From Psammoneis japonica (taxonomy: Eukaryota): DNA of 64,000 nt. The stretch lies in the NCBI GenBank assembly GCA_008632985.1, contig QPGO01000283.1:1-64000 (forward strand). Direction: 5' to 3'. The notes under the pieces were generated by a model. The model was not told the origin of the DNA, did not search any database, and worked only from the letters and a program-made list of their open reading frames with translations. Shown here one piece after another: positions 1-64,000 of this stretch. The translations under genes were made by a program, and so were the position numbers. How positions within the stretch are numbered: position 1 is the stretch's first letter; every line of letters starts with the position of its first letter.

Positions 1-1010
1 CCAACAGATGCTGCTCTGGCTCTTTTGGGGGGTGCCATCTTGCCTCAGAGACACCAGCACCTGTGTTTTTGGCTGAGCATTCTCCTGACATGCTTGCCAA
101 TCTTCCTTGTGGTTTCCACACCAGGACCTGCCTGTCATCCGGACTTAGCAATGGTGTCATGCACCCACTCCTTCAAATTTTTTGTGCTTCCACATTCAGC
201 TGTGTCCTTGCTCACATTTTCCAGGACTTGTGTTTGAGTTCCATGGCTTGCTGACAGCTGCACACTCTGTTTCACTGACCCTGACACAACCTTGCCACAC
301 CTTCTTTTGGCAGACTCTTGCAGCTTCTTCAACAGCAAGGCCCTCCAAAGACCATTTCTTTGCCCTTCTTCAGCTGGCTTGTTTGGTGCAATCTGCCAAC
401 ATGAGGTGTGCCTTTGGATTCCTGTGAACTTCCCACCTTTTCCTTTGGATTTCTGTCAACTTCCCAGCCCTTGTCTTTGGATTTCTCACAACTTCCCAGC
501 ATTGTAACAACACCAATCCTTTGGGTGTTGTGCCGTGCCTTTTTGGCTTCTGCGTTGGAGCTTTGTGGCTTGCCAACCAGCATGCGTGGTGTGGTCTCAC
601 TGACTCCCACACCTGACCACGTAGCTTGCAAACAAATTGTGCCAATGCCGTGGACCACTGTTGCCATGCTGGCCTGGTGCAGAAGCTGAAAAGTGAGTGC
701 AAAACCCACAACTCAATCGGAGCTGCTAATGCAAACTTGCTTTGTTGTCCACAAATGTCAGCATGCCTTTCCCCTGCAACTTTGTCTGTCTGTCCCATGA
801 AAAACACCTCTGACCCCAATGTTTCAACATGTTTCCAGGTTGTGAGCATGGTTCCTGTGTGGACAGTGACAAAACAGAGCAGTGGCATGGTGAATGGGTT
901 GTCTAAACCATTTCCCAAGCCATCATAACAAGCAGCCATGTGATGTGTGACAGCATCAATTGCTGGAACCAGGCTGCAATCAACTGTGAGGTTTTCAAAT
1001 TGCCACAAGG
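1..1010 (-). repeat. Decayed dispersed repeat of unknown family, homologous to 47330-48130
   Basis: 85-510 aligns by eye with 47425-47850 (gacatgcttgccaatcttcc... vs gacatgcttgctgatcttcc...). Both give related minus-strand peptides (xLADCxKQAS, TLGSExxF). Confidence 0.6.
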
Positions 1011-1889
1011 GCTCTGAACATTGTGGCATCCTTTGTGTGCACCACCAACCTGGTGATGTCAAAAAATCTCAATCAAAAGCAAAACAACAAGGTGCACACC
1101 TGCTGCTCATTTTGTCTGCTGCTTGCTTTGTCATTTGCTCTGACAACAGCACAGCCCATGTCCAACTGCATGAAAAACCTGAAGTGCTGGGTGAGCAAAT
1201 GTGGTGTTTGCTCTTTTGATTTTTTGGGAGTGTGCGTGTGTTCATGTGTTTCACAAACTTTCAAGGTCTTTGTTTGGTGACGGTGATGCCAATGCTCAAG
1301 CTTTAAATTTCAAAGTCTTTAAAGAACTCTGGGAGCTGGGTGGGCTGCCTCCCAATCTTGCAAAAATGCCCAAGGTGGGTGCCCTTGAAACTCCAGTGAC
1401 AGCAAAGTGAAAATCCATTGTGGAAAAATGGAAGATGTCAGAGACTAAACTTCAAGTTTGCTCCCACAGCAAGTTGTCCCTTGGTGGCAGCCCACTTCAG
1501 CATGCCTCAAACTGGCATTGTTGCAAGGCACTCCAAGGTGAGGAAAAACAACAGAAATCAAAAACCTGGAAATGCTTTGCACAACTTCTGATCCAACCAT
1601 GGAGGAGGTGACAGAGTTAAGTCTGTGGCTGGGTTGAGCCCATTGTGTGCCAAGATGGTTGCAGGAAATGACACTCTTTTTTTGCCCCTGATCATTGGGG
1701 TGTGCAAGAATCATTGCCACAGCAAGCTTTGCATGGTGGCAAGTCCACAACCACAAAGGACAAGGAGTCAATGAAAAGTGCACTCTTTGGCAAGATCACC
1801 TCTGACAATGAATCTGGAGCACTCATTTCACCATCTTCTTTCCCAACTCTCAATGTGCCAGCCACTGCACTGCTTCTGAAATGACGTGG

Positions 1890-2400
1890 CAATTGACAAC
1901 ACTGTGCTTCTTTCACAAAACTGACTCTGGAACACTCACATTCTTGACAACTCTGCCATTGATGCAAAACACATTCCCTGGACCTTCAACTGGTGCATCA
2001 GAGCATGCATTGCAGTGATCAAGGCTGGTCATTTGAGCAACACTGGAGATGCAAGTTGGTCCACAGAGACAACTTGAACTGTGTGTGTGGGCTGTTCCAT
2101 GTCAGCTCCTGGTTGCTTCATGTCTCATCCTGTTGTTTTTGCTTTGTTGCCTTGGCATCCTGGCAAGGGGAGCATTCAGGCATGTTGCATTTTGCCAGGC
2201 TCTTTGGAAGCACACCCAATCTTGCCATCCATTGCAGTTTCACAAAACTTGTGCAACCAAATTGTTGACAGCATTTCAGGAGCAGCCATGCCTCAGCAGA
2301 TCCTTGGTGGTCCTCCATGTCCTTTGCCACAGGCATTGGCTCAGAGTCTTCATCTGGCACTGCAGGTGGTGTCTTGGAGAAGTCCACTCACTCTGAGGTT
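1890..2400 (-). pseudogene. Copia GAG-pre-integrase / integrase N-terminal fragment
   Basis: ORF 2118-2387 reads QQFGCTSFVKLQWMARLGVLPKSLAKCNMPECSPCQDAKATK, matching the Copia pre-integrase pattern H.RFGH.SF.KLQ.MA..G..PK.LA.C..P.C..C. Confidence 0.7.
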
Positions 2401-2449
2401 AAACTTGGCAAGGTGCCCGTGTCTCCCTTGTGCTTGCCATTCATTGTCA

Positions 2450-2670
2450 GTCCATCTAAGTCAAAAACTGCTGCCGTGGACCCATCACCTTCCCCAGGTG
2501 CTGACCCCAAGTCTTGCAATTGGTTTTGGCTCTCCTGCTGGTTTGCTGCTCCTTGCATGGTGCATTGGTGTCATGTCTCTTCTCATCTTCGTCTTGGTCC
2601 ATCTGAGTCAAAAACTGCCACCATGAACCCATCCCCTTCCCCAGGTGCCAACCCTGAGTCTTGCAATTGG
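2450..2670. repeat. Direct repeat, about 74-bp unit at 147-bp spacing
   Basis: gtccatctaagtcaaaaactgc...tcttgcaattgg (2450-2523) recurs at 2597-2670. Confidence 0.75.
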
Positions 2671-3056
2671 CCTTGGCTTGCAGGTCTGTCAAACAAATGA
2701 CGACCTTACACTTGAGTTTGCATCATGCAAAAGCACTCAGTCATGCATGCATTGCAGACATGGAGCAATGGCCCCTGTTGATTGATCCAATTGACTGCAA
2801 TTCGAAAGGAGCATGAAATGTTCAGAATCCCTCTGTGTTGAGTGTTGAAACTGATCTTTTCAATGCTCTGGGCAAATGGACAATTCAATCCACTGGCACT
2901 CACAATTTGTGAACTTACTTCACTGCAACAACCAAGCTCTTCATCAGTTCAAAGACCTTGGTGAACATTGTTGGCAGATTCCAATGGTCAGCAGTTGGGT
3001 GTTTTGATGCGCTTCCTCTGGACTGAGGACTGAAACAAAAGAGACAACCAGTTGCA

Positions 3057-4255
3057 ATGGCATTTTCTCTGACACCTGCTCAGGCCATCACAGGCATTCT
3101 TGATTTTGTTGAGAAGGCTTGCAGAGCTGTCTGCAAGGTTGACAGAGCTGTCTGCAACAAGACAGTTGAGAAGCTCATGGAAAATGGCTTCAACTGCACA
3201 CAGCAGAAACCATTTCAGTTCCTCAAGACCCTCAAAGAGATCAAGCTGCCACAAATGGTTGGAATGAAGATGATGGGATCTTGATGATTCCCAATGACCT
3301 GACAGACATCATGTCCGACACCACCAATTTATTGACACACCACAATCAAATTGAAATGGATCTCATCTGTGATTGCAAGCACGTGCACATCAATCAACTG
3401 GTGAGGCCAGCAAAAGACATGAGGATGCTGTGCCATCTACTTGTGAGTGCACTTTCTGAAGAAGGAAAAACCAGAATTTTGGTCTGGGGAAAGCAATGTA
3501 AAATTGTCAAGAACAACAAGATGTGTCTCTCAGGAAAAATGCTTCTGTTGAAGGTGACAATCAGAGAAAGGCACCTCAACACCAATGCCACTGCAATGAG
3601 CATGAGGATGAAACTCAGCAATCTTGACAAGTGTGTTGGCACAGCATTGAGCAATGTTGTTAAATGCAACCAATGCATGCTGCTCTTGATGCAAGCTCTC
3701 AAGTTTCATGGTGAGACAACGGAAGACCTTCAATTGAACTTGTTTGAGGGACACCTTGTGGCATCCGACAAGACATTTGTCGATTGTGTCCATCACAAGC
3801 ATGATGAAGGAAATGACATGACATGGATCCCAACAAACTTGTGAGCCTCATGGTCAACAAGTGCAAGAAGATGGTCAAGACAGAGGAATGGAGTGCACCA
3901 TCCCTCAATGAGGAGAACATTCTGGCTCCAGAAGTGAAGGTCAAAACCCTCAAGAAATCATCTCGATGCAAGAAAACTGATTCCAAGAAGAAGGGAAATC
4001 CAAAGGGCCAGAAGAAAGGAGGGAAAAAGACTCACTGTCCCAAGCCCAATTGGTTGGAGAAGGATGAGACCCATGAATGATCAACTTCATGAGCCCCAAT
4101 GTTAGAATGACAAGCCACATTGTTGTTGGGCTGTCATGAAGACATGGGCAGAAAGTGTGAGGAAAAGTGGCAGATCCACAAACCATCAGCATGTGAAGGA
4201 AAAGCCTTCCTTGCTCAGAAACTTGGTGGCACAAAACATCCTTCAGAAAAGAGAA
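3057..4255 (+). pseudogene. Copia (CoDi-like) gag, frameshifted; interrupted at 4256 and resuming at 11331-11450
   Basis: MAFSLTPAQAITGILDF...LLKVTIRERHLNTNATAMSMRMKLSNLDK...GETTEDLQLNLFEGHLVASDKTFV...EWSAPS is a typical diatom Copia gag. A Lys/acidic tail continues beyond the nested element. Confidence 0.75.
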
Positions 4256-4440
4256 TGACAGAACATTGAAGGGCAATGATGATGATGACATGAAAGACTC
4301 CCCAAGCACCAGGACTGTGACAACACGAGCACTGGCAAAAGAGAATGAGAGTCAGATCTCAGAGAGATCTGCTTGTCTGTCTAGAATGGTCTGGCATCGT
4401 CCACACACAGTCTGCCCATCCTGCTGTTAGCAGACTGACA
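4256..4440 (-). repeat. 3' LTR of Copia 4256-11330
   Basis: aagggcaatgatgatgatgacatgaaagactc...cagactgaca matches 11160-11330. The adjacent acctcccctg is a PPT on the minus strand. Confidence 0.85.
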
Positions 4441-4499
4441 ACCTCCCCTGATCTGGAATGTCCAAAAGCTGGAAGACAATGCAGATCAACCAATGAACA

Positions 4500-7400
4500 G
4501 GGATGATGTGAAAGAACAGACCAAATGACAAAACGCAATGTCCAGACCCAATGTGCAACAACCAAAAGGGCAATCAGCAGCAGGGATGCCACCACACAAA
4601 AAATGTCAACGGCAGTGTCCCATCATTTGTTGAGCATGCGATGGTGAGTGTAAAGCACCCATCCCAGAGCCTTGGCAAGGTCATCACTGGGATCAACAAT
4701 GCCAGGGATGTGTTGGGTGGCAATCTTGCCAGCCTCCTTCTAGTCTTGGATCATGAAACATTGAACGTTAATGTGTCGCGAGCACTCTGCAGGGACAGAA
4801 TGGTTGATGATCTTTGTTGCCTGCTCATTGTCAATGAATGATGGTGTGGGTCCCACCTGGGGAAACCCCAGTTCATGGAGAACATGGCAAAGGAAAAGGA
4901 CATGCTTGGAGGTGGTTCCGGTGGCATGGAACTCTGCATCTGTAGAACTTGCAGCAGCGACCAATTGTGTCTTGCATTGGAAGGACACAGCGGCACCAGC
5001 AAGCATGCAACTGTGTCCCACAGTGGATTGGTGGTTGCAAAGGTCATTTCCATGCACAGCATCTGGGAAAGCAAGGAGCTGGTGATCACACTCCACAGTG
5101 GGAAAGGACAGCAAGGTGGGATCATCAATCAACCATTTGCAAGGACATTTCAGCAGGCCAGGGTCCAACTTGGTCTTCTTGCAGTTGAGTTCCCAATTCT
5201 TGGTGTGTTGCAGACACTTGGCAACACCCTTGAGTGCATTGTGATGAGCCACAGAAGGACAAGTGGAGAACTTGAACAGGGCACCTGTGGCATGTCTAAT
5301 GTCCAAATGGCAGACAACACATGCATGCAACAATTCACCAAGTGGACTGTGATGACCAAAGCCAGCTGCTTCCTTTAACTCTGCATGCTCCAAAGTGCCT
5401 TCAGCAGGACCAATGGTGGCACACAATTCATGGATAGACTCGACAGGCATCAACATTGCCTTGCAATCAGTGGTGGGTTCATCTGCAGCAGGTTTGATCC
5501 ATCCATGGGAGACAAAAACATGGTCAATGTAGCCACAGATGGCAATGCCAATGGAGTCATCACACTGGTGAATGTCAACACCATTGAAGTCTCCAATGAG
5601 GCCAAGACACTTGAAGGGTGGACCAGCTTCCAAAGGAAGTTGGAGAGCTTTGCCAATCTTGTCATAGATCTTGAGCACAATGGCTTCTTTGGGACATGCA
5701 ATTGAAAAATCATCAACCTGGTGCAAAAGCAGTGCCTCGTGTCTGTTGAAGGCAGCGGAGCAAATGCACTTGTTGTGGGCAGTGTCATGGAACAAAAGAA
5801 TCACATCAGAGAGAATGCCATTGATGTGATTCTCCCAGAGCACGCCAGCTTCTGGGTGTCCTTGGAGAGCATGTTGCATTGGAAGAACCACACTCAGATC
5901 CAACTCAACTCAAAATCCAGACTTGCACCATGTTGCACAAGCTTCATCAACCGCAACATAAACAGAATGAGAAGGCACTGGAAAGTGTGCAAATGCATCT
6001 TGTGCATCGCCTCCACAAATGCGACAGCTCAGAGTCACAGCAAGGGCAAAAAACATCCGGCAGACAGGTCATCAACACACAAAGAATGAGCGGAGTGAAG
6101 GAATGGTGTGTGCCATCATGCTTGAGGTCATGCTGCCAATGGGGATGGAGGACCACAGCATCCTTGGGGCATTTGATGGGTGCACCAAACATGCCAAGCT
6201 CGTGAAATTGATCAAATTGCTTGAATTCACTGGCATGCCATTTGGGGCAAGAGGGTAACTTCTTGAGATGATGATGGGTGAAAGCACCCAATGCTTGTTC
6301 CACTGGAGCAACAGTGTGAGATGAAATGGTGTGTGGGTTCATGACACCATTGTCATGATCAATGTAAAGTGGTGGGGGTTCATCAACATCATCCAAACTG
6401 GAGAAGTCAGCATCAGGGTGTTGAATTGCTGCAATCGCTTGAGTGTCAGCCGGAGAAAAATTCTGGCACATGTTCCTCATCAGGATCCAGTGCAGGAGCA
6501 AAGATGTTGCACTCTGCCAAAGCACATTGTGCAATGCCTTAGAGTCAAGATGGCATTGGGGAGTAAATTCAATCTCAAAATGTGTCTTGTCTGAGTCATG
6601 CATTGCTTGCAACCACTTGACAGCATCATCCACAGTAAAAACACTTTGGTCGTCAATGGAGACAATGCATGCACCCAAAATCTTGTTGTGAGTCACTTTC
6701 AAAGAAGAAAACAAGTGAGCAGCATGGGTGCCATGTTGAATGTCCAAGACACAGACACATTGACAGAGCTCATCGGTGTGGAGGGTCATGCCAAAAGTAG
6801 AATCAGTGAACAGACCCTTCATCATGTGAGTGACAGTCTTGGCAAAAGGGTTGCTGACAAAATGAAACTGCTCCACAGTGGTTTCCTCAGATTCAGTTGG
6901 AATGGGTTCACCGGCTTGAGCACCTTCCAAATGAACCACATTCAGGGGAATGGAATCATGGTCCAAATCATTCACCCCCTCGTCAAATCAGACATGCTTG
7001 GTGGTCTTGACACGAGATGTCTCGGGGTCACACTGAAGGATGTTCTTGGCAGTGTCAGGCAGGTGTCCCAAGAAAATCCCCTTGCAAGAGTTTGTTCAAA
7101 ACTTTGCCCTCTGATGGTTTGATGCTCATGCCCAAACGTGGCAACCAAAAGTCCAGAATGCAGAGAAATCATGTTTCTCACCCACAGCAAGAGCAATCAG
7201 AGCAGCTTCCCATCCTTTCAATGATGCAGCATTCTTGATCCGCAAACAATGGTGAAAAGCACACGGCCAAAACTTTGTGGGCAAATGAGCACCTGTCAAT
7301 GTCACCCGAGTGGCATTGTGGCAATGGTCAAATGACTCTTCTCCACTGGGCCACTCTGATTTGAAGCATCCTCTTTTCCAGTGGGACAAATCACACAGTG

Positions 7401-8565
7401 GAAGTCATCCTCAAAAAGTCACTGAACTGCTGGGTTGCAATGCAACTTGCTGCCTTGATCCAGAAAGACACCTTCACCCAGACATTTTGGTGAGTGCTCC
7501 TCCAGAAAATGGTGAGTCCAATTCAAAGGGGGCAGCTTTGGAAACACAAGCAGCACCATGAAGACATTTTGCAGCATCATCACAGACGGTGATCCAACAA
7601 GTTTCAACATGATCAACCAAGCATTGTTCATTCTTGGAATGCAGGCCAGAGAAAGAGAAATCAATGGCAAGGCCTTGGCAGGGCTGGGTTGCAGTCATCG
7701 TAGAATTTGGATGAGTGGCTGCCTTGGTCTGTTTAGCTTGTGTGCAAGTGGGACAGGTGTCCAAAGGGGATGTGCCATGAGCAAGCTTTGGAACACCATC
7801 AACATGTTCATGGGCATGATGCAGATGGTGATCACTGGGGTGGCCAAGGTGTTGGTGCCACAAGAGTTGTTCAGTGTCTGCCTTGGTGAGAGACTGAATG
7901 GGGATCATCTTCTTGGCATGTTCCTTGAAAGGGACATCTTGGCAGACACGAGGCATTGATTTACATTCTTCATGCAAGAGGTTGTGTTGGGAGTCATGAC
8001 ATGTTTCAATCATGTGTGCCAACACAGCTTTGCATTCATCAGCAAATGAAGGTTCACGCTCTTTCAATTGTGCTGTTGACTCATCAAGAGCTTCATTGGA
8101 TGTTGGAGGTGTGAGAGGGTGCCCACAACATTTGCCATTGATTGATTGTCCATGGATGACAACATCCTGACTCTTGCGCAGTTGATGACATGCCATGCTG
8201 AACTTGCAGGTGCCCAAATTGTGGAACTTGAGGATGCAATCAACATTGTGGTCCTTGCCATGCCATCCATTGGTGAAAGCAACAAACGTTCACCAAACAG
8301 GGTGGAATGAATCTTGGGATGACAGCAAGTTCAAATTGGCATGCAGGCCCATCTCAGGGGGGTTTTCCATGGGAATGTGTAGGTGTCCAAAGCCAAATGG
8401 CATTGCTTCATGACCTGATGCCAGATTAACAGCAAGTGGACATGGATTGTCCAGTGTAAAATCTTGGTGTTGGTGAAGGAGGTCAGGTTCACCAGTGCAC
8501 GCAACATCAGCACCAGCATCCAATTGATCACATTGTTCATCAGGTGCAAAGGAAATGGCACTCAC
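4500..8565 (-). pseudogene. Copia pol (PR, integrase, RT, RNase H), with multiple stops and frameshifts
   Basis: ALQGHPEAGVLWE, LLHQVDDFSIA (RT), AFPDAVHGND and AAASSTDAEF (RNase H), AHLPTKFWPCAF (INT). Confidence 0.85.
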
Positions 8566-11145: not shown

Positions 11146-11159
11146 ACAAGGCCACAACC
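11146..11159 (-). promoter_or_regulatory. Decayed primer-binding site, half-tRNA-iMet type
   Basis: The minus strand directly after the LTR reads ggttgtggccttg, resembling the copia-type half-tRNAiMet PBS GGTTATGGGCCCAG with a TA>TG change. Confidence 0.5.
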
Positions 11160-11330
11160 TGACAAAATGCCAAAGGGCAATGATGACAATGACATGAAAG
11201 ACTCTCCCTGAGCACTGGGACTGTGACAACATGAGCACCAGCAGAAAAGAATGAGAGGCAGATCATCTGTCTAGAATGGTCTGGCATTGTCCTTGTGCAG
11301 TCTGTCCATCATGCTGTCAGCAGACTAACA
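11160..11330 (-). repeat. 5' LTR of Copia 4256-11330
   Basis: Minus strand runs TGTTAGTCTG...TTTTGTCA and is homologous to 4256-4440. Confidence 0.85.
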
Positions 11331-12199
11331 AAGAATGATGAGCCAACATTAACCAAGAAGATCCAAAAAGACCTCAAGTCCCTCAAGCCATCAGAAGCTC
11401 CTCCTCTCACTGCCACCACAGATGAGATTGAGTCCTCCAATGAAGAATGACTGGCAGAGCAAGGTGACAAGCCTGATTGTGATTGGGGAATCCAGGGTGT
11501 TGCCATCTGCGTGCATCATTTGCTGCATGGTTTACAACTGTGGTTGTGGCTGTGCCACTGTTGGTGGTGCTGCCAATGCAATTTTAGTGGCTGCAACCTG
11601 CAACTGGATCTCAATCACAGTTCATGAATTGTTGAGGGAAGCAAATTGCAAACACTCTTCTGAACAAATTCATTGCCCCAGAGCTCACATCATGTTGCTG
11701 ACAATTGTCATTTTCCATCTCATTGTTTTCTTTGGCAAGAACCCTGACAACCCCAATCTGTGCTGCTTTTCATGATCAAAACATTGGACAAAAGGTAGAA
11801 GATTGATGTGGCAGGCCCAGTCAAGCATGCAATGGACAGGAAAACAATTGATTGATTTGTCTAAAACAAAATCAATCAACTGTCCACAGCCAAACAATCC
11901 CTGAGAGGGAGAATCAGGTGAGCAATTGTGTGAAACACCTTTGCCTTCTGCATCTTGTAGATTGCACTTTGTTTCACATTTCACATTGCAATTGCATTTC
12001 TTGCCCCAGACTGCCTTGTCCTTCTCTGATGCAGTGTCTCTGTCTGGTGGGGCAATGATCTGACATGGTGCACCAATCCACCCACAAAATTCTTGCCCAT
12101 CGTGCCAAAAATTTCTTGATTTTAATTTAAAAACTCTTGCACCCTGTGCCAGAAATCTTAGTTCTGATGTAAATTTTTTGTCACGCATCACAAGAAAAT

Positions 12200-13790: not shown

Positions 13791-13816
13791 TTCGTCTCCC
13801 TAATTGCACATTAGAG

Positions 13817-19145: not shown

Positions 19146-19349
19146 AAAACGACTTGACTGTAAACTGATCAGGTGTACTTTTCTTCAACCCATTTGCAAA
19201 AATACACCTGACCCGATAACAGTCAAGTCTATTTTTGCAAAAATTGTGTGAACATTAGAGTTTCAGTACAAAAACGTGTAGATTCTACAGACAGCCATGA
19301 GCAATTTTGGCGTTTTCCGTGAGGGGTCATTTTCGAAAGATTCCTATTG

Positions 19350-48130: not shown

Positions 48131-48189
48131 CCTTCCCTCTGCTTCTCATGTGTCTCAGGTGGGATGGCAACAATGTTGTTCATCTCATG

Positions 48190-52100: not shown

Positions 52101-52699
52101 TTGATCGGCCTTTGCACCATGGTTGCCATGATGTCTCCAGATGTTGTGTGTGTCATTGCTTTCCAGTGCTTGTCTCAGAGTGTGGTGCTGTTGATTGTGT
52201 GCACATTCCTTCCCAAGGTGGTTTGCCATTGCAATCTGGATTTCCTTGCATTTGCGAATCTCACACTCCAAACATTAGATCAGCATTGATTTCACAGTTT
52301 GCATCATGTTCACTCATGCAATTCGAATTTACTCACCTGAGTTTCAAAATCAATGCAATGTCCTGTGACTGGATGACTGAATGTGCGATTTTTCCAGTTC
52401 CATTTCCCATTTGTCTGACATTTGTGTCTGTCCAGCTGCAAGGCACGACGTGCTTTCTCAATCAATGCCCACACATTTTCAACAATCCGATTTGAAAATC
52501 AATTGGTTCATTCGATTCCAACAATTTTCTTCCTGTCAGCATCTGTCTTGGCAACCCCCCCTGAAATTTGACCCTTTGCCCATGACTTGTCACCACCATT
52601 GCTGCCACAAGCCCCACCGAATCAGTCGTGTTGATGCTCCGGCCAGTGATTTGGGCACATTGTCCCAAGCTGCTGCATTGCTCCTTTGTCAATGACGTG

Positions 52700-55600
52700 A
52701 TGATGAGTCCATGGTGTTGTCCTCCTCCCAACATGTCTCTGACTCCGCTGGATCATCTACAAATGCACTGGACCATTCCGACACCAGTTCCTTCACTGCC
52801 TCTCTGTCTGTTTCCTCCCAGTCATCCAGTGGCACAATGTCAGGATCTGATCTTGACTTTGAGAACAGAGGGTTTGATGACAACGATGATGATGCATCGG
52901 ATGCCAATGGATCTCTTTCTGACAATGAAGATGACAAGGAGGATCTGTGTCTGTTCAAGATGTTTCCCGGCACCAACCCCACTCACAATGGTGGGGTCGA
53001 TGAAGAGGACACTTTGCCAGCAGAATCGTCTAATGTTGGTGATCAAGAATTTTTTTCCCCATTCTGGTGCAGCTTTACATTGGCTGAGGAAGCTTCTCTT
53101 GAGCTGATCACACTGTGCAACAACTCCAGTGCAACCCAAGGCTTTCACAATTCACTGCTCACCCTGCTGTGATGGCTTCACAAGAAAAAGAATTTTGATG
53201 CATCCAAGGCTCTTTGCCATGAAAATTTTAGTCAAAACCCTGCAAACCAAGGTGCACATGCCCAAGTCAGACACACGTCTCATTTCTGGGTGCCAAGCAC
53301 TTGTTTCCGAATGCTGGACTTGCTGAGGGACTTGCTGACCCACTCTCATTTTGAAGATCACCACAATCTCAATCATTCCAAGAATGTTTCCGCAAGTTTG
53401 TCCCTGTTGACAACTCCAACCTTGGTGAAATTGTTTGCAACAAATGGTGCTCTGACACATGCAACAATCTCCCCAATGATTTTGATCCAGAGAAGGACCT
53501 CCTTCTTCCAATCAGCTTGCACGCAGACCAAACAGGCACCAATGCCTGTCAATGACATCCACTTGAACCCTGGCTGTTTTGCATCCTCATTGTGAAGAGA
53601 AAAGCTCGCAAACACTCACATGCTTGGCATCACCTGGGTTTCACACCCAGCACAGATGAAGGAGGTTCATCTGGTGGCACTGATGAAAACGGCAACTCCG
53701 CAGAGGACAATGCATCACCACGTGCTGATTCATCCAGCAATGTGCAGGCCTGCCATGACATGCTTTCTTTTTTTTGGAGGACTTGAAGGATCTGGAGAAG
53801 AAACCACCCAGGATGATGGTGAATCTGGGTGGGCAACATTGGCTAATGTGCATCCTCCTCATGCAGGGCCCAATCTTTGGACCAGAAATCACAGGACTGC
53901 ACATGCTGTTGAAAAGCCACCAATGGAGGTGGTGCTGGCAGGGTTCATCAACTGTGCATGTGTTTGTCTACAAACACATCCAACACCTTCCTCCCCACAC
54001 AAGAAAATGGACTGTCTTGCACTCCAATAAATGTGAAGAGACAGTGTCTCATCTAAACCAAATTGCCCTTGGATTTCATGTTGCATCTGTTGAGGAAATC
54101 AACTCCAATGGACGCATGGAGGATTTCCTGAAATGGCAGCACAAGCCAGCCGTGGCACTGCTTGCCAGACCTTGCACAATGCACCCAACAAGAAATGCCT
54201 TTGTGAAGCCATTGATTTTGGGAGCAACCTGTGGGGTGTGTTTCCCACTGCTGCCGATGACCACCTGCACTCTTGGGAGGCCGGCAGCAGAGAGAATGCA
54301 GCCACTGTGTTTTATCATGGTTTGACACCTAAAGAAAAAGAGAGTTTCAAAAAGGAGTTGGTGTCAGCAGTGGGGTCCACCAGGTCAAGTGCATTCAGGA
54401 ACTGTCCAAAAGGACGTCTGAGCTCTGGTTTCACCAGGAGGACTCTCATGACTCACTCAGAAAATGTTGGCACCTTGTTTTGTCTCAGTGTGGCAATGCA
54501 ACATAGATCCACTCATGACACAATGGAAAAAGCTCATGAATGACAGAAAAAGAAATGCACTGCCTTTCCATCTGCTTCAAAGATGGCAAGTTTGTTGCAA
54601 AAGGGGAAACAGAGTGCTCTAGCTGAAAAGGGGAAACAGAGTGCTCCAGCTGGCAGCAGTCACTTGGAAAACACCAATTCCAGGAAAACAACTTCCCATT
54701 GAACAGCTTTGAACAGGCATGGACAGAAGAGGAAAAGACATTCCAACACATTGCAAGGTGGATCATTGGCAGGCAGATGCTTCTCAAAATGACAAAGCTG
54801 TTTCCCAAAGTGACGACCCTGCTTCTCAAAATAACAACACAGCTTTGACACCCAGCACCTTTCCTTTCAGGAAAAATTTACACACTGTGCCACAGACCAT
54901 GACACAAGTGATGCATTCAACAGAAAACCTGCTGCCGTGCAATTTGTCATCAAGCAACTCAAGCTGCATGGCTTCGCCTTTTTGTTGCAAGATGATTTTG
55001 ATGATTTCCAAATGGACCAGCTCTTCGTGGAATCTTGGAAGACAATGAAGGCCACACATGGCAAGCATTCTGTCTCCTGCCCCTCACACCAATCTGTCAA
55101 ATCCCTCAAGTGTCCAATCCTTCTGGACCGGTGCCAAGGCCCACTAAATGAAGAGTTTGAGACTGATGTTGAGAAGTGTGTGGAATGCAGGTTGAGAAAA
55201 AATGTTGCAAAGAAGAAGGTTGATTTGCCTCCTCCCTCTTCTGTGAATGTCATGGAGGAAGACACCAACCACCCACACCAGTTTTCTCACCCAATGCACA
55301 ATTGTTTGGAGAAGCATCATCACAAAAAGCCACAGATGAAGGGCAATGGGCACACCGGATCAACACTTTCCAACATGTCCACACCTTTGCTTCCTTCCTT
55401 GAACACATTCTCTGTTGTCATGCGCATTGTCACTGTTCCCACTTGCTTCCCAAGGAAATGCAGACAGACAACAAAGCCCTTGCATTTGGGGCAAAGAGGG
55501 TCATGGTGTGCATGGACACAATGATTTATTGTGGCGACTCTGCCATTGACAATGACACAGGGAAAAATCATTCACAGCTTCACACACTGTTAAATTGATT

Positions 55601-56525
55601 GTTTGTGGGTGAGCCAATGCAAATGTGCACGTCAACGGGTGAGAGGCTTTTGAAAACAAAAGCCAAAAAAATGTTAAAGACAGCCCAGAAGCAAGGAGAG
55701 GAAACCTTTGTGCACCAAACTTGTGAAAGGGTGTGTGTGAGTCCATGCTCTTTGATCATCATGTTGACACCCTGGACAGCACAAGCACAGGTGATGCGAG
55801 TGATGACATGGACAACTCCTCTGCAATGCTGGCCACGACCACCACACAAAAGATGCCTCATTTTGTGTTTGAACAGGATCAATTTGACAATGTCCTGTCA
55901 ATGGATTGTTTTGGAAAGATGCACAAACCAAACAAAGAATCCGGCAAACCATGCAGGGCTTTCATTAAAGCAGTGCAAGAATTGGAGCCAAACCAGAGTC
56001 AATTCGAAACATGGAAGAAAGTGAAGCTCTCTGATGGGGAACATGTGTGTGCCCATCCACAACACGGCTCCAAGGAGGGCACCTCGTGTGATTGGGCAGC
56101 TGTTGACTTTGACATGGACAACGACTCAAACGAGACATGCCCAGCGAGAGTTGTTGGCCTTTACAAGGACAATGCAGGCACTGTGAAGGCCGTTGTCCAT
56201 TCAGCTGATTGCAAGCATGCAAGTCCACCTGCAGAGACACCAGGCTGTTCATGCATTGCCAACAAGAATTCCAAAGCAACGACAAGCCCTCCATGAGAAA
56301 CGTTCCTGTCTCATCTGTAGAAAGCGTGGATGCCTGTGCTTCCAAATGAAACACCACAAAGACCCAGTCCCACCTCAGATGTTGTCAGCCAACGCAAGGA
56401 AAGCACACACCATCATGGCAGTTTGTCCCAGAGTGGAGTGGGCTGAGACATTTGTCCAATGGACAAGGGAGATGATGATGCAAGAGGCCACCAAGACCAA
56501 CTCAGCACACAGGTGCAGATTTTAG
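52700..56525 (+). pseudogene. Plavaka-like (CACTA-related) DNA transposase, heavily decayed
   Basis: Fragments read by eye: DPEKDLLLPISLHADQTGT...HPLEPWLF...RKARKHSHAWHHLGFTP, VQACHDML, DQKSQD, DDHLHSWEAG, and C-terminal AHPQH...CDWAAVDF...CPARVVG. Termini not found. Confidence 0.65.
54599..54652. repeat. 27-bp tandem duplication
   Basis: aaaaggggaaacagagtgctc(t/c)agctg occurs twice. Confidence 0.85.
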
Positions 56526-57521
56526 GTGTGACAGGAGGCAGCTCCTAAACAACAGTTAAAGAACTGTTGGTCAGAGATGTGGCTGCGCAATTTTGACACA
56601 ACCATCACAGATTTCCATGCGTCTTGCTCATCATGCAGAATGACAAAACCAGGGCACCAATGCATTGTCCAATCAGCATGAATTGACATCAGAATGCCCA
56701 CCACCCCCCGTTTTGGCAAGGAAATTGTGGATTCCTTGGGAACAATCAGTGGCAAGTTGTTGAGAACATCCAGCTGGTTGCAATTTTCAAGATGCTGCCA
56801 CACCATTTTAAAGTTTCCACACAACAACAGGCACATGATGAAGTGGGTGTGTTTGCATGTTGGATGCAAATTGCTTCTGTATTGCCTCAATTTGAAATGC
56901 TGCTGCAGCTTCCCATCCACCTTTGGTGCATCAATGGTGTTGAATGGCCGATGGCTTTGATGGTGCAGTTGTCCATCCTCTCCTTGAAAAAAAAGTCTTT
57001 GATGTCCAGCTCCATGTGCCAGCCTTCTGCTTTCTTGAACAGGTGGGCATTGATGAAGCAGCAGCAGCAAGTCATTGTGGCTTGCATGCTGGGAACATCT
57101 CCTCAAATGCATTGCCCCAGGCAATCAGCCAGGCCAATGCAGTGTCAGCACATTTGTTGGCTTGGACCAATGCAACGGCAATTGATGCAGTTCCCCTTGG
57201 TTGGCAAAAGAGTGTCAATTTTATTTTGTGTCATTCCAAAGTTGCTCAAAAGGCAAATTATGTTCTTTTGCAAAAGTGCCACTTGTCATTCTGCAGCACT
57301 TGCCTCACCTCCATCAGCTGTGCAAGTGTGCAATCCTCAACAGGATTGGGAAACCACAGTGGAAAATCAACACCATCTGACATGGTGATCACGGAACTTT
57401 GACTGGGGGAACAGATTTGGGAAAATGAACGACAGAAACCCAGCGACACATGTCAACCATTTGCTTGGTCGTGCATTGTTGCTCTGGAATTGTTCGACCA
57501 ATCCGAGTGAGCAATTGTCAA

Positions 57522-60500
57522 TGACAGAAATTGAAAATGACTGGGTGGAAGAAAACAATGACTCCTGACTGCTGTCTAAACAGCAGATGAGTCTACGTGC
57601 AGAGACCATCACAGGAGCCGAAAGACTGGTGTTGTGATGTTGGCACTGCTGTCATTGTTCTTTTGAGCTGAGTGGCTTGAAAGCAATGTGCATCATGCAC
57701 ATCACATGCGGAACTAAGAGGACATGCAATTGTGTGTGACAAACTAAAATCTTGTTCAAATCCTGTCACTTCCCAGTTTGATTGAGGAGTCCACAGCAAC
57801 AGATTCAAAATTGGATTGATCAAAGGCCTCGGGATCAAAGTTCCAAAACACAAGAGGATGGAGGAGGTTCCAAACCTGGGAGCAACCCCAGTGTTTGCTG
57901 AGGATGTCAGCATGATTGCGGGAACCTTCAATGAAGTGGAACTCAAAGAAACCAGAGGCAATTGCCTCATGCACATGATGGAACAAGAGGACAGTGTGTT
58001 GCTTGTGTAACTTGGAGTGTGGCATGGGGCACTGTCCACAACCAACTTGTTGTCCCCAAACATGCAACAGGTGTCACAGATTGGGACACCAAGGCAATGC
58101 AATGCAGTGCACAGATCAATGATCTGTTCAATGCTTGTCCTTGCAACAACAAACTCAAATCCATGCATCACAGTCTTGACTGTTGCTGGTTTCTTGGAGA
58201 ATCAATCAGCCAAGAACTTGTTGAGGAAATGAGTGATGCCCGTGACTGAGCATCCGGTGAGCATGCAATGGAGAAAGTTTGCATCAACATGATGGGTTGT
58301 GGTGATGAACTTGCCAAGTGGCTTGGGCGCATCTTGTGGGAGCAGCTCTTCTGCCTCCCCACACACAGATTGGGCCCAGTTGTGCATGGGCTTGGGGAGG
58401 TCCAAACTGTTGGGTTCCTTCATGCACACTTGGAGGGCACCATGTGGCAATGGACAAGAATCCACACACATGTTTGGCATGGTCCAGGTGGCCTTGATGG
58501 GGTGTGGCATGGAAACTGCACAGGGACATTACGGCTGCAGCAACATCAATGTGACTGAGGGACACAGCCCATTGCAGGGAACCAATCAGGGATTGGAGTT
58601 GGTGGATGCCATCAGCTCTAAGTAATTCAGAGGTGATGAGCTCAGGGTGGTCTCCCTTCTCAAGAGGGGAAAGCACGCACAGTTGTTGACCATGTGCTCA
58701 ATGCAATTGCAAGGAGCAAGGCACAGGGTGCCATTGGAATCATGGGTGAAGTTGCAACCAAGGTGGAACTCCAGTGGTCTAGTGCCCTTGAGCTTGAACT
58801 TGCATTTCTCTGTGAGAGTGTCTGCAAAAGCTTGGGGGTCCTTCATGGCAAAGGCCAGGTCGTCCACATGCACTGCCATGTGTTTGCAGTGGTCACCATC
58901 CAGATGTCGGGTTTGGCATGGCATGGGGAGAAACCTTCTGCATGCAAACAATTGGCAAAGCATTCATGCCACCTGAGGCCAGAGCTGTGGAATCCATGTG
59001 ACGCCTTGTGGATGAAAAGGATGTGTCCTTCCAGCTTGCCACATTTGGGGCCTGCCACAATGTGCAGTTTCTCCTTGGTCGTGGCTTCAAGACAGGCATT
59101 CCCAATGTCGGTCAACCAAGTCTCTAGTTCATTGAGTTTGGCCAGGAAGGTCATCAACCAAAGGCCGCAGAGGGACACTGCTCCAGAGCAGACACTGTCA
59201 ATGGGTGTGTCTGTGAGGTGTCCATCAGCAACAAGTCGTGCTTTGTGCCTTCCATCATGTTTGATGTCACAGACAAGATCCACCCTAATCTTCTTGTGTC
59301 CTGCTGGGGCACTGGAGTCCTTGCAGTGTCTGCAATCATGAAAGACCTCACACTCACCAAGCTGAGTCATCTCAAGGTCCATTGCATCTCCCCACTTGTG
59401 GTTGCCATTGCGCTCCTCAAGGGCCAAGGCATGCTTGCAATCCTGGGGCACTTCACACCCATGCTTGCATCGTGATGCAGTGCAGAACGAGCACAGCTTG
59501 GCTTGGTTGGCTGTGCAGAATGGCTTTTTCTGGTGCAGAGCCACACTTTGGAAGCATTTTCATCCATCAGTTTTGAGCAAACCATGCTCACATGCATGGA
59601 TGGCACAAGTGATGGATTGTCTTTGGCAATGATGGCAAGAGGTTCCAACGTGATCTTCCCATTCTCCCATTCAAGCATGATGTTGTAGCTTGAGCCTTTC
59701 CAGGAGGGGTGATGAGGTCTCAATGGTCCTTTGTGTGAGACGATGTGTCAGAACTTCCAGAGAGCAGAGTCCTTGTCTTCCTGCTCAATGTGGTGCATGA
59801 TGTCATTGCAGGCAAGGATTTCCTCACATTCATCATTGTCAATGGTGCAAATGAATTTGACTGGTTCTGGGTTGTTGCCAATTTCCCAGTCATGGTCTTC
59901 AACAGCCTTGATGATGCGGGCTCTGCAGTGTTGTCCGTCTTCTTGTGGCTTCAAGAGGAAGGTGCATCCAATGATGTCCTCGGGGTCAAAGACCGGCATT
60001 TTGGGCATCCTGATCACCTCCACATCTGGTGAATCTGGTGAATCCTTGGAGTCTTGTTGAGTTTTGATGATGGGTTTGGCAAATTTTTCATCGGGAGGGT
60101 CAAGATGCAGGTTGGAAGCAGACGGGTCATGGGCGGAATGCACGTTGGAGTGGCAAAGAATCTTCTGAGCATTGTCAGAAAGAATTTTGAACGTCATTTG
60201 ATGACCCACCGGTTCAGCAATGCCGATGAAGGGACCACACAACTTGCGGGATTCAGACGGCCAGTCAGAATCATCAAGGTGGTGGCACACAGGTTCCCAC
60301 GATTAAAAGCGGAGGAGGGGGCTGATGTCGGGGGTGGATCTGGACAGCACTTTGGTGGGAGCATGCCAGTGAAGCTTGGCAGATGCTGCATGGTCAAGCA
60401 CAAAGCACATGCACATGAGGGCCACAAGCCAGGTGCAGGCCGGGGATCCAAGCAATCCATGATGGTGTTGGCCATGTTCTTCACAGTTTGGTGGCAGCGC

Positions 60501-62773
60501 TCAGCAAAATTCTGGTGTTGTTGGTGGGGCTGGCTTTGCTGACTGGAGATGAAGAGGGCACGAAGGATGCTGAGAACCTTGTCACTGATCTCAACCTGAG
60601 CACGGTCACTGATGAGCTTGGACGGAGCACCACGGTTGTGAATGTTGTCTTTGAGCATGTTGATGAATTCCTTGTCAGTCTTGGTGCTGCACACATCCAT
60701 GATGTTGGATTCCATGCCAAGGAAGAGCTGAGTGCTGACACATCTAGAGTCAATGGCAGGGGTGTCAAAGTGCACCACATCAGTGGCAACGGGTTCATTA
60801 CGTTGGTGGACATTGAGAGCCGGGTTGGGCAACTTGCATGCCTTTTTCAGGTGCATGCTGATGGGCATGTGAGCATGCTGTGTCATGCAATCAAAAGTCC
60901 TGCAAACAGTGTCCTTTGGGAGGAAGCCATGGCAGTGGCGGAGGGACTCACAATGGTTGGGATCCTTGGGGTTGATCTCACTCTCATGGCAATCATAGAA
61001 AAAATCAGATGTTGGGATGATGTGGTCATCAAGGATGGAGTTCACAAGCATGGCATTGTGGATGACATGTTGGTGGCGATGGTTGCCAAACTCATCAAAG
61101 AGGTTGGTGGTTGGGTTGTCTTTGAGGTCTGACATGGTGCCATGCCACGTCTCATTGTCTGTGAACTGTTGGTCGAGGATGGATGGGTCCCAGGTGTCAT
61201 CACCAGTGAGGATGACATCAGGCAGAGTGTCCCATTCCGCATTGGTGTGCAGTCATGTTGCAATGTGTGGCAGGCTGCCTTTGATGTCAATGGGGATGAC
61301 GTGCCTGTCAATGGTGGTGATGTGCTGCAGACCATTGGGGACCTTGATCGACCGATCGTTGATGTCATGTTTGCACAACTTGAGTTGGCCGCACAAGTGC
61401 ATGGTCTTGCCCTTTCCAGTGCAGGTGCACCAGTGAAGGATGGCAACAATGGGTCCACATTGTGTGTGGATTGCACCACAGGCAGTGACAATGGGAATGT
61501 TGACAAGCTGATGGTTGTCCATGTGTCAACCTGGTGATCAGTGTGGGTGATGACATGAACATCATCACCAGCGATGCCACAATTTGTGCCAAGATCTATG
61601 AGAGCACCCTTGTGAGTTGAGTTGTGTGTTGAGGCGGAGTCCACAACATTGTGGTCATTGGCACAACGGCAAGTGTGACTGTTGATCTCAATGTTGGTGG
61701 CAGCATCACAGGAGAATGTTGATCCAGGGAGTTTGTCACTAGAGCGGGCCAAGGGTGGCCTGTTGGGTGCAAGGAGATGTTGCAAGTCACTGGGTGACAG
61801 AGGCTTGTGCTTGGTGAGGTGCACCAGGATGGGGTTAGCATCAGTTGCATCGGCTGCAGTGTCAGGTGGTTTGGGGGCCGACGCAAGATCATGGGCATTG
61901 GCAAACAAGTTGACATTGCCATTGCTGCCCAGATGGAAGGGTCATGCAGGTTCACAGCCATTGAGTCATGGCAGTTGCTGGCACGGGCAGTGCGCAAGCC
62001 AAGGATGATGGCCTTGGTGGACTGAGGCAAGGTGTCCCAGATGCGCTGGTGATCTGGTGGATTGCAATGCCATTGTTCCCTGGTGAGGGAGGAGGCACCA
62101 CGAGTCTGTGCAACATGAGCCTGGATGACATCAATGTCACTGTCAATGTCGAAGAACACATCATCATCAGGGTCATCGGGGGCCAGGTCATGGGCACTGA
62201 CAGTGTGGCACAGAGTGCATGAGGCCGTCTTGGGGATGAACGTGCTGTCCTGCTGTGCTGCCATGGAAAGCAGGAGCCCACAACATTGCTCATGTGAAAG
62301 GCTTGTGCCATTCAGTGTGCAATGCTGATTGGCTTGGTTCCACATCTGAATGGAGTTTGTTGCCAGGGTGAATGGCATTCTCATGCATGACACGTTTCTG
62401 GCCAGCAGAGAAGCAGTCTGCAGTCAGGATCAGAGCTTTGCACTTGCAAAGTTGGTCATGCCAGTGAAGTGTGAAGGCATGGGTGGTGTCTTTCCAGGTG
62501 CCATCACCAAGGCGAGCAGTGCTGAGATGTGCAACAAGGGTCGATGACTCCAGGATGCACAGGCAGATGCAAGGGCACACTTGGACAGTTCACGGTGCAC
62601 TGCTTGAGCATCAGACATGTTCACAAATGAGAGCCTTGCCCTTGTCATTTTGCAAGATGTGCTCAAACACAGCAAACATGCATTTCTGTTGTTCAGCAAA
62701 CAGGGCTTTGTCCTCAGCCACAGAGGGCTTGCATGTCAGATCAAGGATGCGGTCAATGTCCTGAGAGTGGGCC
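57522..62773 (-). mobile_element. Old, heavily decayed Copia of the same lineage as 23106-30217, interrupted in gag by a younger relative
   Basis: 3' LTR at 57522-57768 (most similar to 49200-49444) with adjacent PPT. Minus-strand KHDGRHKARLV, KLISDRAQVE and ARLGDGTWK are colinear with 24900-29900. Confidence 0.92.
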
Positions 62774-64000
62774 TGACAGGATTTGAACAGGATTTAGGTG
62801 CGCGCGAAATGTCGCGCGCTGTTTAGTTTACCGCGCACAGTTTTGTGTGCTTTGGTTCCGCGCGTTCGCGCGCGATGTAGTTTGCTTTCGAGCCACAAGG
62901 CTCACAAGAATAATGACAGTAGCCCGATTATACCGACTTACACGTCTTTCGGCTCCTGCAACGGTCTCTGAGCGGAGACTCATCTGCCATGTAGACAGCA
63001 GCAAGGAGTTGTTGTTTGAATTCTTGCCATTTGCCTTCAATTTCTGTCAGATTAACAGTCTTGCTCATTGTCAACCCATTGAGCAACCGCCATCGTCGTC
63101 GTTGATTTACCGACGACGCTATTTCAATTCTGCGTGGACCTCCGTGTGTGTTCTACATACATCGGCAAGTTTACGTGCGTTCAACACCAGGCATCGGCAG
63201 GAATTTAACGTCACCGTCAAGTCTCCTTACCGCTGGATGTCTGGATTGATTGTGCCACCTTTGATCGCTGAAGACATGCATCAACGGTCATATCCAAGTC
63301 TATCCTTGATCCTCATCCCTTGACACACCCATTCAATGGTTAACGGTCAAGAACCCTACATATTCAAGGATCTTCGTCGCTGAAGACACACATGTGTACA
63401 TGTCTTCACGGCCAAGGACTTGAACCCACCCTTTGGACTGCGGCTTTGCCACCACTCTACAAGCACGCCGAGTCTATTGTACCTGATCTACCCCGGACCA
63501 CTGGTGCTCTACAGTTCTACTAGGTCCACGAGGACAACTGTGAGAGCAAGCAGCCGTGATTGCAGCCTACGTTGGGGCGAGGGTGTTTTCCCGCGTTTGT
63601 TCGTTCGTCCACAGCGCCTAACGCCTACGTCAACTGGCCAGCCTGATCGGGAAATCCAACCGACATAAAATAAGAACGGTTCGGGGGTCTTGTCCACCTC
63701 TAGTCAGCTTACCTGCAGGGGGTTTACAACCCGCTACTCCGCTCATAAGCAACCCAAAGCGCCACTGGCTGCGGGTGCGGACGTGCCGGCACAACTCTAC
63801 GGACCGGATAGGAAGTTTAGCACTTGACAACGAACGGGATAGCAAAGCCCAGCGACTTCTGATTTTAAGGTAGTTCAAGATTTCAAGTCAAGTCTATTTC
63901 AAGTCAAGTCTATTCTCACCCAAGTTTCAAGTCTACCTTCACCACCTTCGCTTCCCAACAAGAATTGCTTGTCCTGACACCACTTTTGTCTGCCATGGTT
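62774..64000 (+). mobile_element. 5' end of a young Copia (LTR 62774-63049, PBS, 5' UTR, gag ATG at 63995), running off the window
   Basis: Highly similar to 23106-24328. Confidence 0.95.

Follow-up and report, generated by a model that had tools for sequence, protein, structure and literature searches.

TpA-specific, post-integration hypermutation of copia and gypsy retrotransposons in a 64-kb stretch of eukaryotic DNA

Results

The window, by which we mean the whole 64-kb stretch of DNA that was analysed, is filled with nested copia and gypsy LTR retrotransposons of a eukaryote. Among 29 + 148 open reading frames (ORFs) scanned with Pfam, LTR-retroelement domains alone exceeded the cut-off, with no transposase; no host gene was found by these scans or by tRNA and Rfam searches of the window, neither of which gave a match. 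The original prediction had counted DNA transposons among the affected sequences, a claim that we could not confirm, as each motif it quoted sits in a copia or gypsy element. Relatives of the elements came from marine and other metagenomes. Neither the close relatives of gypsy pol, gag and copia pol nor 10 clusters supplied a name, the sole named match being a diatom transcript at 48% identity.

The left end of the window (1–12000) is a heavily decayed zone, with observed/expected ratios (o/e) of 0.08 for TA, 0.13 for CG, 1.85 for TG and 1.81 for CA, in which relics of one old copia-type element lie on the minus strand (RT/RNase H-like, 4659–5393; gag-pre-integrase, 7477–8289). The element that we call the big gypsy follows on the minus strand (13403–30707; LTRs 13403–13790 and 30328–30707; gag-pol 19322–23158; integrase end 13826–14245) and is interrupted by two nested insertions. 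One, at 14300–19300, carries long ORFs without a Pfam family at a TA o/e of 0.14–0.5 and stays unassigned to class, repeat analysis and an Atlas search having yielded nothing usable for it. The other is copia A on the plus strand (23105–30217; LTRs 23106–23383 and 29940–30217, with TG..CA ends), flanked by the 5-bp target duplication CCAAC and showing a TA o/e of 0.04–0.6 and a CG o/e of about 0.8. An inter-element spacer (30708–33548) has a TA o/e of 0.18–0.46, while its CG falls from 1.23 at 30501–31000 to 0.14–0.56 from 31001 on; across 31692–33560 it is single-copy in a public sequencing run, at a depth of 30–40.

To the right of the spacer lies the outer gypsy on the minus strand (33549–44563; LTRs 33549–33967 and 44147–44563), into which the inner gypsy was inserted on the plus strand (34419–39865; LTRs 34419–34583 and 39701–39865; pol ORF nearly intact at 36348–38771). 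The empty site of this insertion was recovered as a contig of the run linking 34414 directly to 39866. Within the outer gypsy, a sharp-edged patch on the minus strand covering the protease and the start of the RT (41901–43000) is unmutated, with o/e of 1.11 for TA, 1.20 for CG, 0.86 for TG and 0.88 for CA. A second heavily decayed zone (44600–57500; TA about 0.1, CG about 0.2), partly single-copy in the run, has remnants of an old copia element, LTR and leader, at 49200–50193. The right end holds copia B, an old minus-strand copy with 71% identity to copia A (57522–62715), and the 5′ part of a third, plus-strand copy, copia C, with 91.5% identity to copia A (62773–64000), which ends at the window edge.

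As predicted, TA is nearly absent over most of the window and TG and CA are excessive. TA was counted 985 times against 4228 expected (o/e 0.23), the minimum among 200 shuffles being 4087, and the excess of TG (6485 versus 4070) and CA (6274 versus 3916, o/e 1.60) is 1.6-fold. CG is also depleted (1997 versus 3769), and the combined loss of TA (3243) and CG (1772), 5015 in all, is close to the TG plus CA gain of 4773, with CpG decay the source of about one third of that gain. The two losses vary along the window, TA and CG o/e being 0.36 and 0.82 at 12001–44500 and 0.10 and 0.20 at 44501–62700. The argument that decay of 5-methylcytosine (5mC) cannot account for TA removal stands in so far as TA loss is not 5mC decay alone; the parallel loss of CpG had been overlooked. 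Surviving CG is about equally frequent after all four 5′ bases, and a TCG preference, like that of the amphioxus deaminase BjADAT2, was accordingly rejected for the CpG loss. No periodicity of surviving TA or CG on the nucleosome scale (100–300 bp) exceeded shuffles.

Fungal RIP, which had already been set aside, is likewise a chromosomal, dinucleotide-based transition hypermutation of repeated mobile DNA that acts on both strands and ruins reading frames. RIP, however, changes C to T at CpA and so makes TpA, whereas the window loses TpA and retains its GC content; the TA and CA ratios and the polarity from TA to CA or TG are the opposite of a TpA excess.

The depleted sequence was also compared with reads. 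Eight contigs of 405–1384 bp, assembled from exact 31-letter words of the public run at a word depth of 30–40, matched depleted single-copy parts of the window with 0 differences, although this run may be the data behind the window assembly and its independence is not proven. Of the 40 variant places listed (291 further ones exist), 12 have TA and 10 have CG in other genomic copies, against TG or CA in the window. The check in accurate reads thus favours real mutations, with the reservation that the reads are perhaps the window's own source. A sequencing or consensus artefact, with the base-caller misreading TA and CG that carry modifications, would explain why both palindromic YpR steps appear converted to TG/CA with a random outcome at each site, and strand-mixed miscalls could mimic the pattern. 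Its probability is nonetheless negligible in our view: beyond the contigs, independent miscalls on two strands should also make CG from TA, but Tyr to Arg was seen in just 1 of 51 columns, and depletion follows true divergence, transversions included.

Polarity was established at the level of residues, with unmutated homologues as the reference and conserved columns scored for each element. Every motif quoted as evidence for Tyr to Cys, Tyr to His and related changes was found in the window: CLDD at 41465–41476 on the minus strand, GKCEH, GHYH, FREPNK and WRPTMEEC within 20218–21116, and VCDVKH, GNAHL, KALHGL, ATCGSEF and HWGCSQ within 28406–29848. In five LTR retrotransposons, most conserved Tyr residues have been replaced by Cys or His, with little change in other residue classes. 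The inner gypsy has 8 His, 8 Cys, 4 Tyr and 1 Arg at 21 conserved Tyr columns, and shows no change at any of its 35 Trp, Asn and Gln columns. The 30 Tyr columns of copia A read 13 Cys, 9 Tyr, 5 His, 2 Phe and 1 Trp, compared with 15 Cys, 10 His, 1 Tyr and 4 others for the 30 in copia B, and depletion thus increases with element age. In copia B, 40 Arg columns read 8 Arg, 16 His, 11 Cys, 3 Gln, 1 Trp and 1 gap. At 20 Tyr columns, the big gypsy has 6 Cys, 5 His, 3 Tyr and 6 others. The outer gypsy kept Tyr at 4 of 6 conserved columns inside the unmutated patch versus 0 of 13 elsewhere in the element.

Single-step events in two of these ORFs comprised 32 TA>TG, 17 TA>CA, 24 CG>TG/CA and 6 other transitions. 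A>G outside TA occurred 2 times against 49 TA events, so that A>G is strongly enriched at TA, the point on which the original prediction could have failed. Its suggestion of Pol-eta-type WA>WG synthesis did not survive the same data. Such mutagenesis is expected to hit TA and AA alike and to produce A>T and A>C beside A>G; AA is undepleted (o/e 1.17), A>G is nearly confined to TA and transversions are few.

The timing of the change was read from the LTRs. Four LTR pairs (1238 aligned bp) contained 59 substitution events, 52 of them at TA, CG or CA-versus-TG steps: 25 TA versus TG/CA, 17 CG versus TG/CA and 10 CA-versus-TG doubles, leaving 2 other transitions and 5 transversions. An element integrates with two identical LTRs, and as the members of a pair now differ mainly at TA steps, the mutations arose in the chromosome after integration. 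By hand calculation, each LTR lineage has lost about 26% of its TA and 11% of its CG, against a background pair divergence of about 0.6%, figures that are not per-generation rates. These pairs bear out the prediction that the A:T>G:C change is specific to TA, acts on the chromosome and is symmetric between the strands. When the TG and CA labels were put through runs tests, no strand-coordinated tracts emerged (z +0.04 to +1.46), while control dinucleotide pairs were strongly clustered.

An origin of the changes ahead of integration, whether in retroelement RNA edited from A to I by an ADAR-like enzyme or in reverse-transcriptase errors, had been dismissed, and we agree that it is very improbable. 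ADAR does prefer U before the edited A (cited in the Discussion of bioRxiv 10.64898/2026.01.13.699255), the 32 TA>TG against 17 TA>CA amount to a mild sense-strand excess, and some outcomes are common to copia A and B. The excess arises, however, because Tyr codons are TAY, the favoured flank described below. LTRs of one element diverge at TA steps, CA-versus-TG doubles included, which rules against hyperediting fixed by retrotransposition, as do the absence of coordinated runs and of AA depletion.

The favoured target is T-A-pyrimidine. In the decayed zones, TA survives at 5 of 1763 RTAY compared with 92 of 1771 YTAR, and among 46 polarised events a pyrimidine lay 3′ of the mutated A in 30 of 170 opportunities and a purine in 16 of 202 (p 0.007). 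Two positions before the mutated A, the identity of the base had no effect on these events. The same preference predicts shared outcomes between copies: copia A and copia B have the identical Cys or His at 11 of the 16 Tyr columns mutated in both. Some of these changes could also have been inherited from source copies that were already mutated.

The modified base could instead be thymine, if T at R-T-A is oxidised or hypermodified by a TET/JBP-type route (5hmU-like) and then mispairs with G or is mis-repaired, giving T>C. The outcome at TA would be identical, A>G on one strand being inseparable by sequence from T>C on the other, and a pyrimidine after A is a purine before T on the opposite strand. 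In dinoflagellate DNA, 5hmU is found preferentially at TpA and TpC, which also speaks for this route. We consider it unlikely: T excision with abasic bypass should yield transversions, which were scarce in the LTR pairs (5/59), and no known T modification would be expected to yield clean T>C so efficiently.

The process is uneven by region, sparing sharp-edged patches and, in some cases, one LTR of a pair. This bears on a further alternative without targeted defence, namely that a genome-wide context bias turns TA into TG/CA wherever selection is absent and that old non-coding DNA simply decays in this way. The most depleted parts are indeed old and now single-copy, depletion grows from copia A to copia B, and the window is without host genes for contrast. 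We nevertheless judge such a bias quite unlikely. The LTRs of the big gypsy are of the same age, but at their 10 TA-versus-TG/CA differences TA was retained 9 times in the left LTR and once in the right. A 1.1-kb patch within one element is untouched and its edges are sharp. Moreover, a comparable process in Bigelowiella natans is limited, by the preprint's account, to particular inserts and lines (bioRxiv 10.64898/2026.01.13.699255).

Discussion

Taken together, the data are best explained by post-integration, TpA-specific A:T>G:C hypermutation of LTR elements, accompanied by slower CpG decay and of the same kind as the process in B. natans, a reading to which we assign a probability of roughly 75%. 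Contrary to the original prediction, which knew of no described system of this kind, a 2026 preprint (Mettrop et al., bioRxiv 10.64898/2026.01.13.699255) reports that NCLDV and virophage DNA integrated in B. natans undergoes TpA>TpG/CpA hypermutation de novo. A full-text search of literature outside the subscription journals gave this preprint as the sole account of TpA-specific hypermutation of integrated DNA. According to it, two viral inserts in mutation-accumulation lines gained 231 de novo mutations, of which 230 were A>G or T>C, all of these at TpA, and RT and DDE coding sequences are TpA-depleted.

The two cases share A>G/T>C changes that are nearly exclusive, lie at TpA and give TpG or CpA by strand, are regionally confined and uneven, and lead to long-term TpA loss with CpA/TpG gain. 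The window agrees on each count that can be compared: CpG decay aside, transitions at TA stand almost alone in the LTR pairs (25 TA plus 10 CA-versus-TG against 2 other transitions and 5 transversions), both TpG and CpA products occur with A>G nearly absent elsewhere, and TA loss per LTR lineage lies far above background. The evidence differs in kind. As described in the preprint, that from B. natans comes from mutations arising de novo in viral inserts that are single-copy and remain rich in TA (Rho 0.45 and higher), whereas the window offers fossil evidence in high-copy LTR retrotransposons at an o/e of 0.06–0.4, plus strong CpG decay. What is new here is the near-saturation on copia and gypsy, the TAY flank preference, the lack of strand-coordinated tracts, the sharp unmutated patches and the timing from LTR pairs; the words 'flank', 'trinucleotide', 'LTR', 'copia' and 'gypsy' were not found when the main text of the preprint was searched for them.

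Under the preferred reading, integrated copies in the chromosome undergo fast TpA-specific A:T>G:C transitions. TA sites change individually to TG or CA, with either strand as the target and preferably where a pyrimidine follows. Methylated CpG becomes TG/CA in parallel by ordinary decay, which resembles the main process in acting on a palindromic YpR step, independently per site and strand, and forms the second component in the window. This decay cannot remove TA, and young elements lose TA faster than CG. Old copies approach saturation, with Tyr codons ruined and TAA and TAG stops lost.

The process appears to be enzymatic, most likely through deamination of adenine to hypoxanthine at 5′-T-A-Y in DNA, which would be copied as if it were G when the DNA is next replicated. 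The chemistry of TadA/ADAT2-type deaminases yields A>G in DNA, and their natural tRNA target, A34, follows U33 and thus lies in a T-A context. The one eukaryotic ADAT2 tested on DNA, BjADAT2 of amphioxus, is reported to prefer hairpin or single-stranded DNA, with GAA favoured for A and TCG for C (PMC10354150), whereas the process in the window prefers TAY.

We infer that the process serves as a defence against mobile DNA. To our knowledge, examples of a cell mutating incoming DNA on purpose are scarce outside RIP and APOBEC-type editing, and for adenine no such system has been established. The same signature was present in 9 of 78 related metagenome loci, which form two families, both less identical to the window at the nucleotide level than the best match, at 68.5%; polarity was assigned there by dinucleotide-site classes, singleton-based polarisation being confounded as most copies are mutated. 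This suggests, tentatively, a region-targeted DNA base-editing defence that converts T-A-Y to T-G-Y in integrated mobile DNA, a mirror image of RIP that may be widespread in aquatic protists rather than confined to one chlorarachniophyte, saturating LTR retrotransposons here and also leaving its mark on copia elements in at least one further eukaryote, an uncultured one.

The window thus displays action on integrated DNA and its long-term effect on retrotransposons, in which TA is almost gone and Tyr codons have turned into Cys or His, a scar that also occurs in environmental sequences. The TAY flank preference can be used in identifying the enzyme. For genome annotation, TA-depleted transposon relics give rise to long spurious ORFs and so slip through gene filters that rely on stop codons, and as they also evade Pfam detection, genomes that contain them are prone to mis-annotation.

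Nested LTR retrotransposons fill the window

Self-comparison, Pfam and tblastn with homologues resolved the 64-kb window into nested LTR retrotransposons. On the minus strand, a gypsy element that we call big gypsy (13403–30707) is interrupted by two insertions; inside it lie copia A (23105–30217, with the target duplication CCAAC) and a nested insertion at about 14.3–19.3 kb (14300–19300) with a TA observed/expected ratio (o/e) of 0.14–0.5. A second minus-strand gypsy, the outer gypsy (33549–44563), hosts the plus-strand inner gypsy (34419–39865). Copia B (57522–62715, minus strand) is an old copy with 71% identity to copia A, and copia C starts at 62773. Two heavily decayed zones, 1–12 kb and 44.6–57.5 kb, hold only faint copia relics. 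The relatives of the pol proteins are metagenome sequences, the sole named one being a diatom transcript at 48% identity. The nested insertion at 14300–19300 contains ORFs of 425 and 494 aa, for which no Pfam family was found apart from a sub-threshold zf-RVT hint at 14155–14622; a search for its terminal repeats found none. Searches of the 64-kb window yielded no tRNA, Rfam match, host gene or transposase. The original prediction had extended the mutational pattern to DNA transposons, which the lack of a detected transposase does not support; the protein motifs it quoted were all recovered where it had placed them, and all lie within copia or gypsy elements.

TpA and CpG are both converted to TpG/CpA

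The whole window contains 985 TA dinucleotides against 4228 expected from base composition, and the lowest count in 200 shuffles was 4087. TG (6485 versus 4070 expected) and CA (6274 versus 3916) are in excess, while CG is depleted (1997 versus 3769). The summed deficit of TA and CG (5015) and the summed excess of TG and CA (4773) balance only when CpG loss, missed by the original prediction, is counted. In the decayed zones TA o/e is 0.08–0.10 and CG o/e 0.13–0.20, compared to 0.36 and 0.82 in the younger middle of the window (12001–44500). Among stop triplets, TAA occurs 339 times, TAG 223 and TGA 1475. Loss of TAA and TAG accounts for the 85 stop-free frames of at least 150 aa on both strands; most of these are spurious, and gene predictions would be inflated by them.

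To establish polarity, we scored columns at which Tyr is conserved in homologues, using as reference unmutated homologues whose Tyr content has a median of 3.6% and a minimum of 2.6% (120 proteins). The 21 columns of the inner gypsy read His at 8, Cys at 8, Tyr at 4 and Arg at 1, and the 30 of copia A read Cys at 13, Tyr at 9, His at 5, Phe at 2 and Trp at 1. Copia B retains a single Tyr in 30 columns (15 Cys, 10 His, 4 other). Three Tyr remain among 20 columns in the big gypsy (6 Cys, 5 His, 6 other) and four among 19 in the outer gypsy (5 His, 4 Cys, 6 other). Residue classes besides Tyr are nearly intact in the young elements, and changes of Arg to His or Cys in the window's elements occur via CpG decay. 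In two ORFs, the single-step codon changes comprised 32 TA>TG, 17 TA>CA, 24 CG>TG/CA and 6 other transitions. A>G changes are thus enriched at TA and scarce outside it. Together with the dinucleotide counts, the homologue comparison bears out the core of the original prediction, namely TA depletion with TG/CA excess and replacement of Tyr by Cys or His.

Mutations accumulated after integration

An LTR retrotransposon integrates with two identical LTRs. Across 1238 aligned bp, four such pairs now differ by 59 substitution events, of which 25 are TA versus TG/CA, 17 are CG versus TG/CA, 2 are other transitions and 5 are transversions. The remaining 10 are doubles with CA in one LTR and TG in the other, the pattern left when the two strands of a single ancestral step are hit independently. 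When copia A versus copia C was added, 103 of 134 events fell at YpR steps (TA, CG, TG or CA). Worked by hand from event counts, each LTR lineage has lost about 26% of its TA and about 11% of its CG, compared to a background divergence of about 0.6%. Since the LTRs have diverged mainly at TA and CG steps since integration, the main process works on DNA that is already integrated. These later differences exclude RNA editing and reverse-transcriptase error, both of which would act before integration, as the main cause. The window records hypermutation of retrotransposons that is real, chromosomal and post-integration and consists of TpA-specific transitions, accompanied by CpG decay.

Public reads reproduce the depleted sequence

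A public sequencing run (X1) was available as Logan contigs, built from exact 31-letter words (140.7 Mb in total, longest 315 kb). Eight contig matches of 405–1384 bp each showed 0 differences from the window; all come from single-copy parts with strong depletion and a word depth of 30–40. X1 is possibly the source data of the assembly, so its independence from the window is unproven, but it rules out a consensus artefact of noisy reads. A single X1 contig linking 34414 to 39866 represents the inner gypsy's insertion site in its empty state.

The copia and gypsy families of the window are very abundant in the genome. Summed word depth of the young families is in the thousands, with 10064 contigs placed at ≥90% likeness; it reaches about 143000 over the copia LTR (30001–30667) and 2000–26000 over the gypsy elements (33336–44674), compared to 30–40 in single-copy parts. 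Differences between young-family contigs and the window comprised 92 A>G, 101 T>C, 53 C>T, 45 G>A and 34 transversions. Among 40 of the variant places compared between copies (there are 291 more), 12 had TA in other copies and TG/CA in the window, 10 had CG in other copies and TG/CA in the window, and 3 had TG/CA in other copies and TA in the window.

The target is T-A-Y, without strand tracts

In the decayed zones, RTAY survives at 5 of 1763 YpR sites with that flank, compared to 92 of 1771 for YTAR; young elements retain RTAY at 64/1625 and YTAR at 165/1575. In a set of 46 polarised events, the mutated adenine was followed by C in 18/88, T in 12/82, G in 10/105 and A in 6/97 (pyrimidine versus purine, p 0.007), and the base two before it had no effect. 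Flank survival and this pyrimidine excess define the target as T-A-Y. Tyr codons are themselves TAY, the favoured flank, which explains a mild sense-strand excess. CpG loss showed no flank bias, in line with simple 5mC decay.

Tracts of TG or CA would be left by a processive single-strand deaminase, by transcription-strand editing and by repair-patch synthesis alike. Runs tests in eight regions found no such tracts: the choice between TG and CA was independent between sites (z +0.04 to +1.46), and control complementary pairs clustered strongly. No periodicity was found at 100–300 bp. The inner gypsy LTRs carry CACACA in one copy and TGTGTG in its twin (34447–34452 versus 39729–39734), as if an ancestral TATATA had taken three single-strand hits per copy; this pair is the sole sign of very short-range strand coordination.

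Hypermutation is uneven along the window

The mutation process is uneven across the window. A 1.1-kb patch with sharp edges inside the outer gypsy (41901–43000) has a TA o/e of 1.11 and a CG o/e of 1.20 and retains Tyr at 4 of 6 columns, compared to 0 of 13 in the remainder of the element, where the reading frame is mutated. The patch could have arisen by gene conversion or by recombination with a copy that escaped mutation, or it could have been protected locally. The big gypsy LTRs (13403–13790 and 30328–30707) are of equal age, and the left one keeps TA at 9 of 10 differing sites (binomial p 0.02); TA is near normal in this LTR and its surroundings (13.0–14.3 kb).

A similar process in B. 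natans and the candidate agent

A full-text search of the openly accessible literature for TpA hypermutation returned a single relevant report, a preprint on B. natans (10.64898/2026.01.13.699255). According to its available text, an integrated giant-virus region and a virophage region together took 231 of the 302 nuclear mutations in mutation-accumulation lines; A>G and T>C changes made up 230 of the 231, and every one of these was at TpA, with rates about 1000-fold over background in some lines only. It also describes TpA-poor, CpA+TpG-rich clusters, notes RT and DDE coding sequences, and proposes an ADAT2 homologue as agent. The processes in the window and in B. natans are of the same kind. 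The interpretation originally offered is partly supported: its inference was in essence correct, but its statement that no such system had been described is out of date. Beyond the B. natans findings in the text available, the window adds nearly saturated LTR retrotransposons, timing from LTR pairs, the TAY rule, the lack of strand tracts, patchiness and accompanying CpG decay.

Since the sole ADAT2 assayed on DNA preferred GAA for adenine, as far as the accessible part of PMC10354150 describes, we infer an adenine deaminase as agent in the window only provisionally. Modification of thymine may be the route instead; its outcome would be identical to that of deamination, so sequence alone cannot separate the two.

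Scarred copia loci in metagenomes

Scanning metagenome contigs with a copia alignment returned 78 loci with TA o/e from 0.21 to 0.94. In 69 of these, Cys occupied none of the conserved Tyr columns and His at most 2. The other nine (L065, L058, L068, L069, L060, L061, L077, L053 and L063) combine a TA o/e of 0.21–0.72 with Cys or His at 5–15 of 15–23 Tyr columns, and group into two families. All 78 loci have at most 68.5% nucleotide identity to the window's copia, and the nine lie outside its 40 best matches. Variable sites of the TA/TG/CA type number 80 and 57 in the two families and those of the CpG type 71 and 70, with many ordinary differences as well. The bias towards a pyrimidine after the A is seen again, with 179/550 versus 98/410 in family I; family II shows the same direction without significance, and copies within either family are not mutually independent. 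These loci provide moderate evidence that the scar seen in the window is also present in another, uncultured eukaryote.
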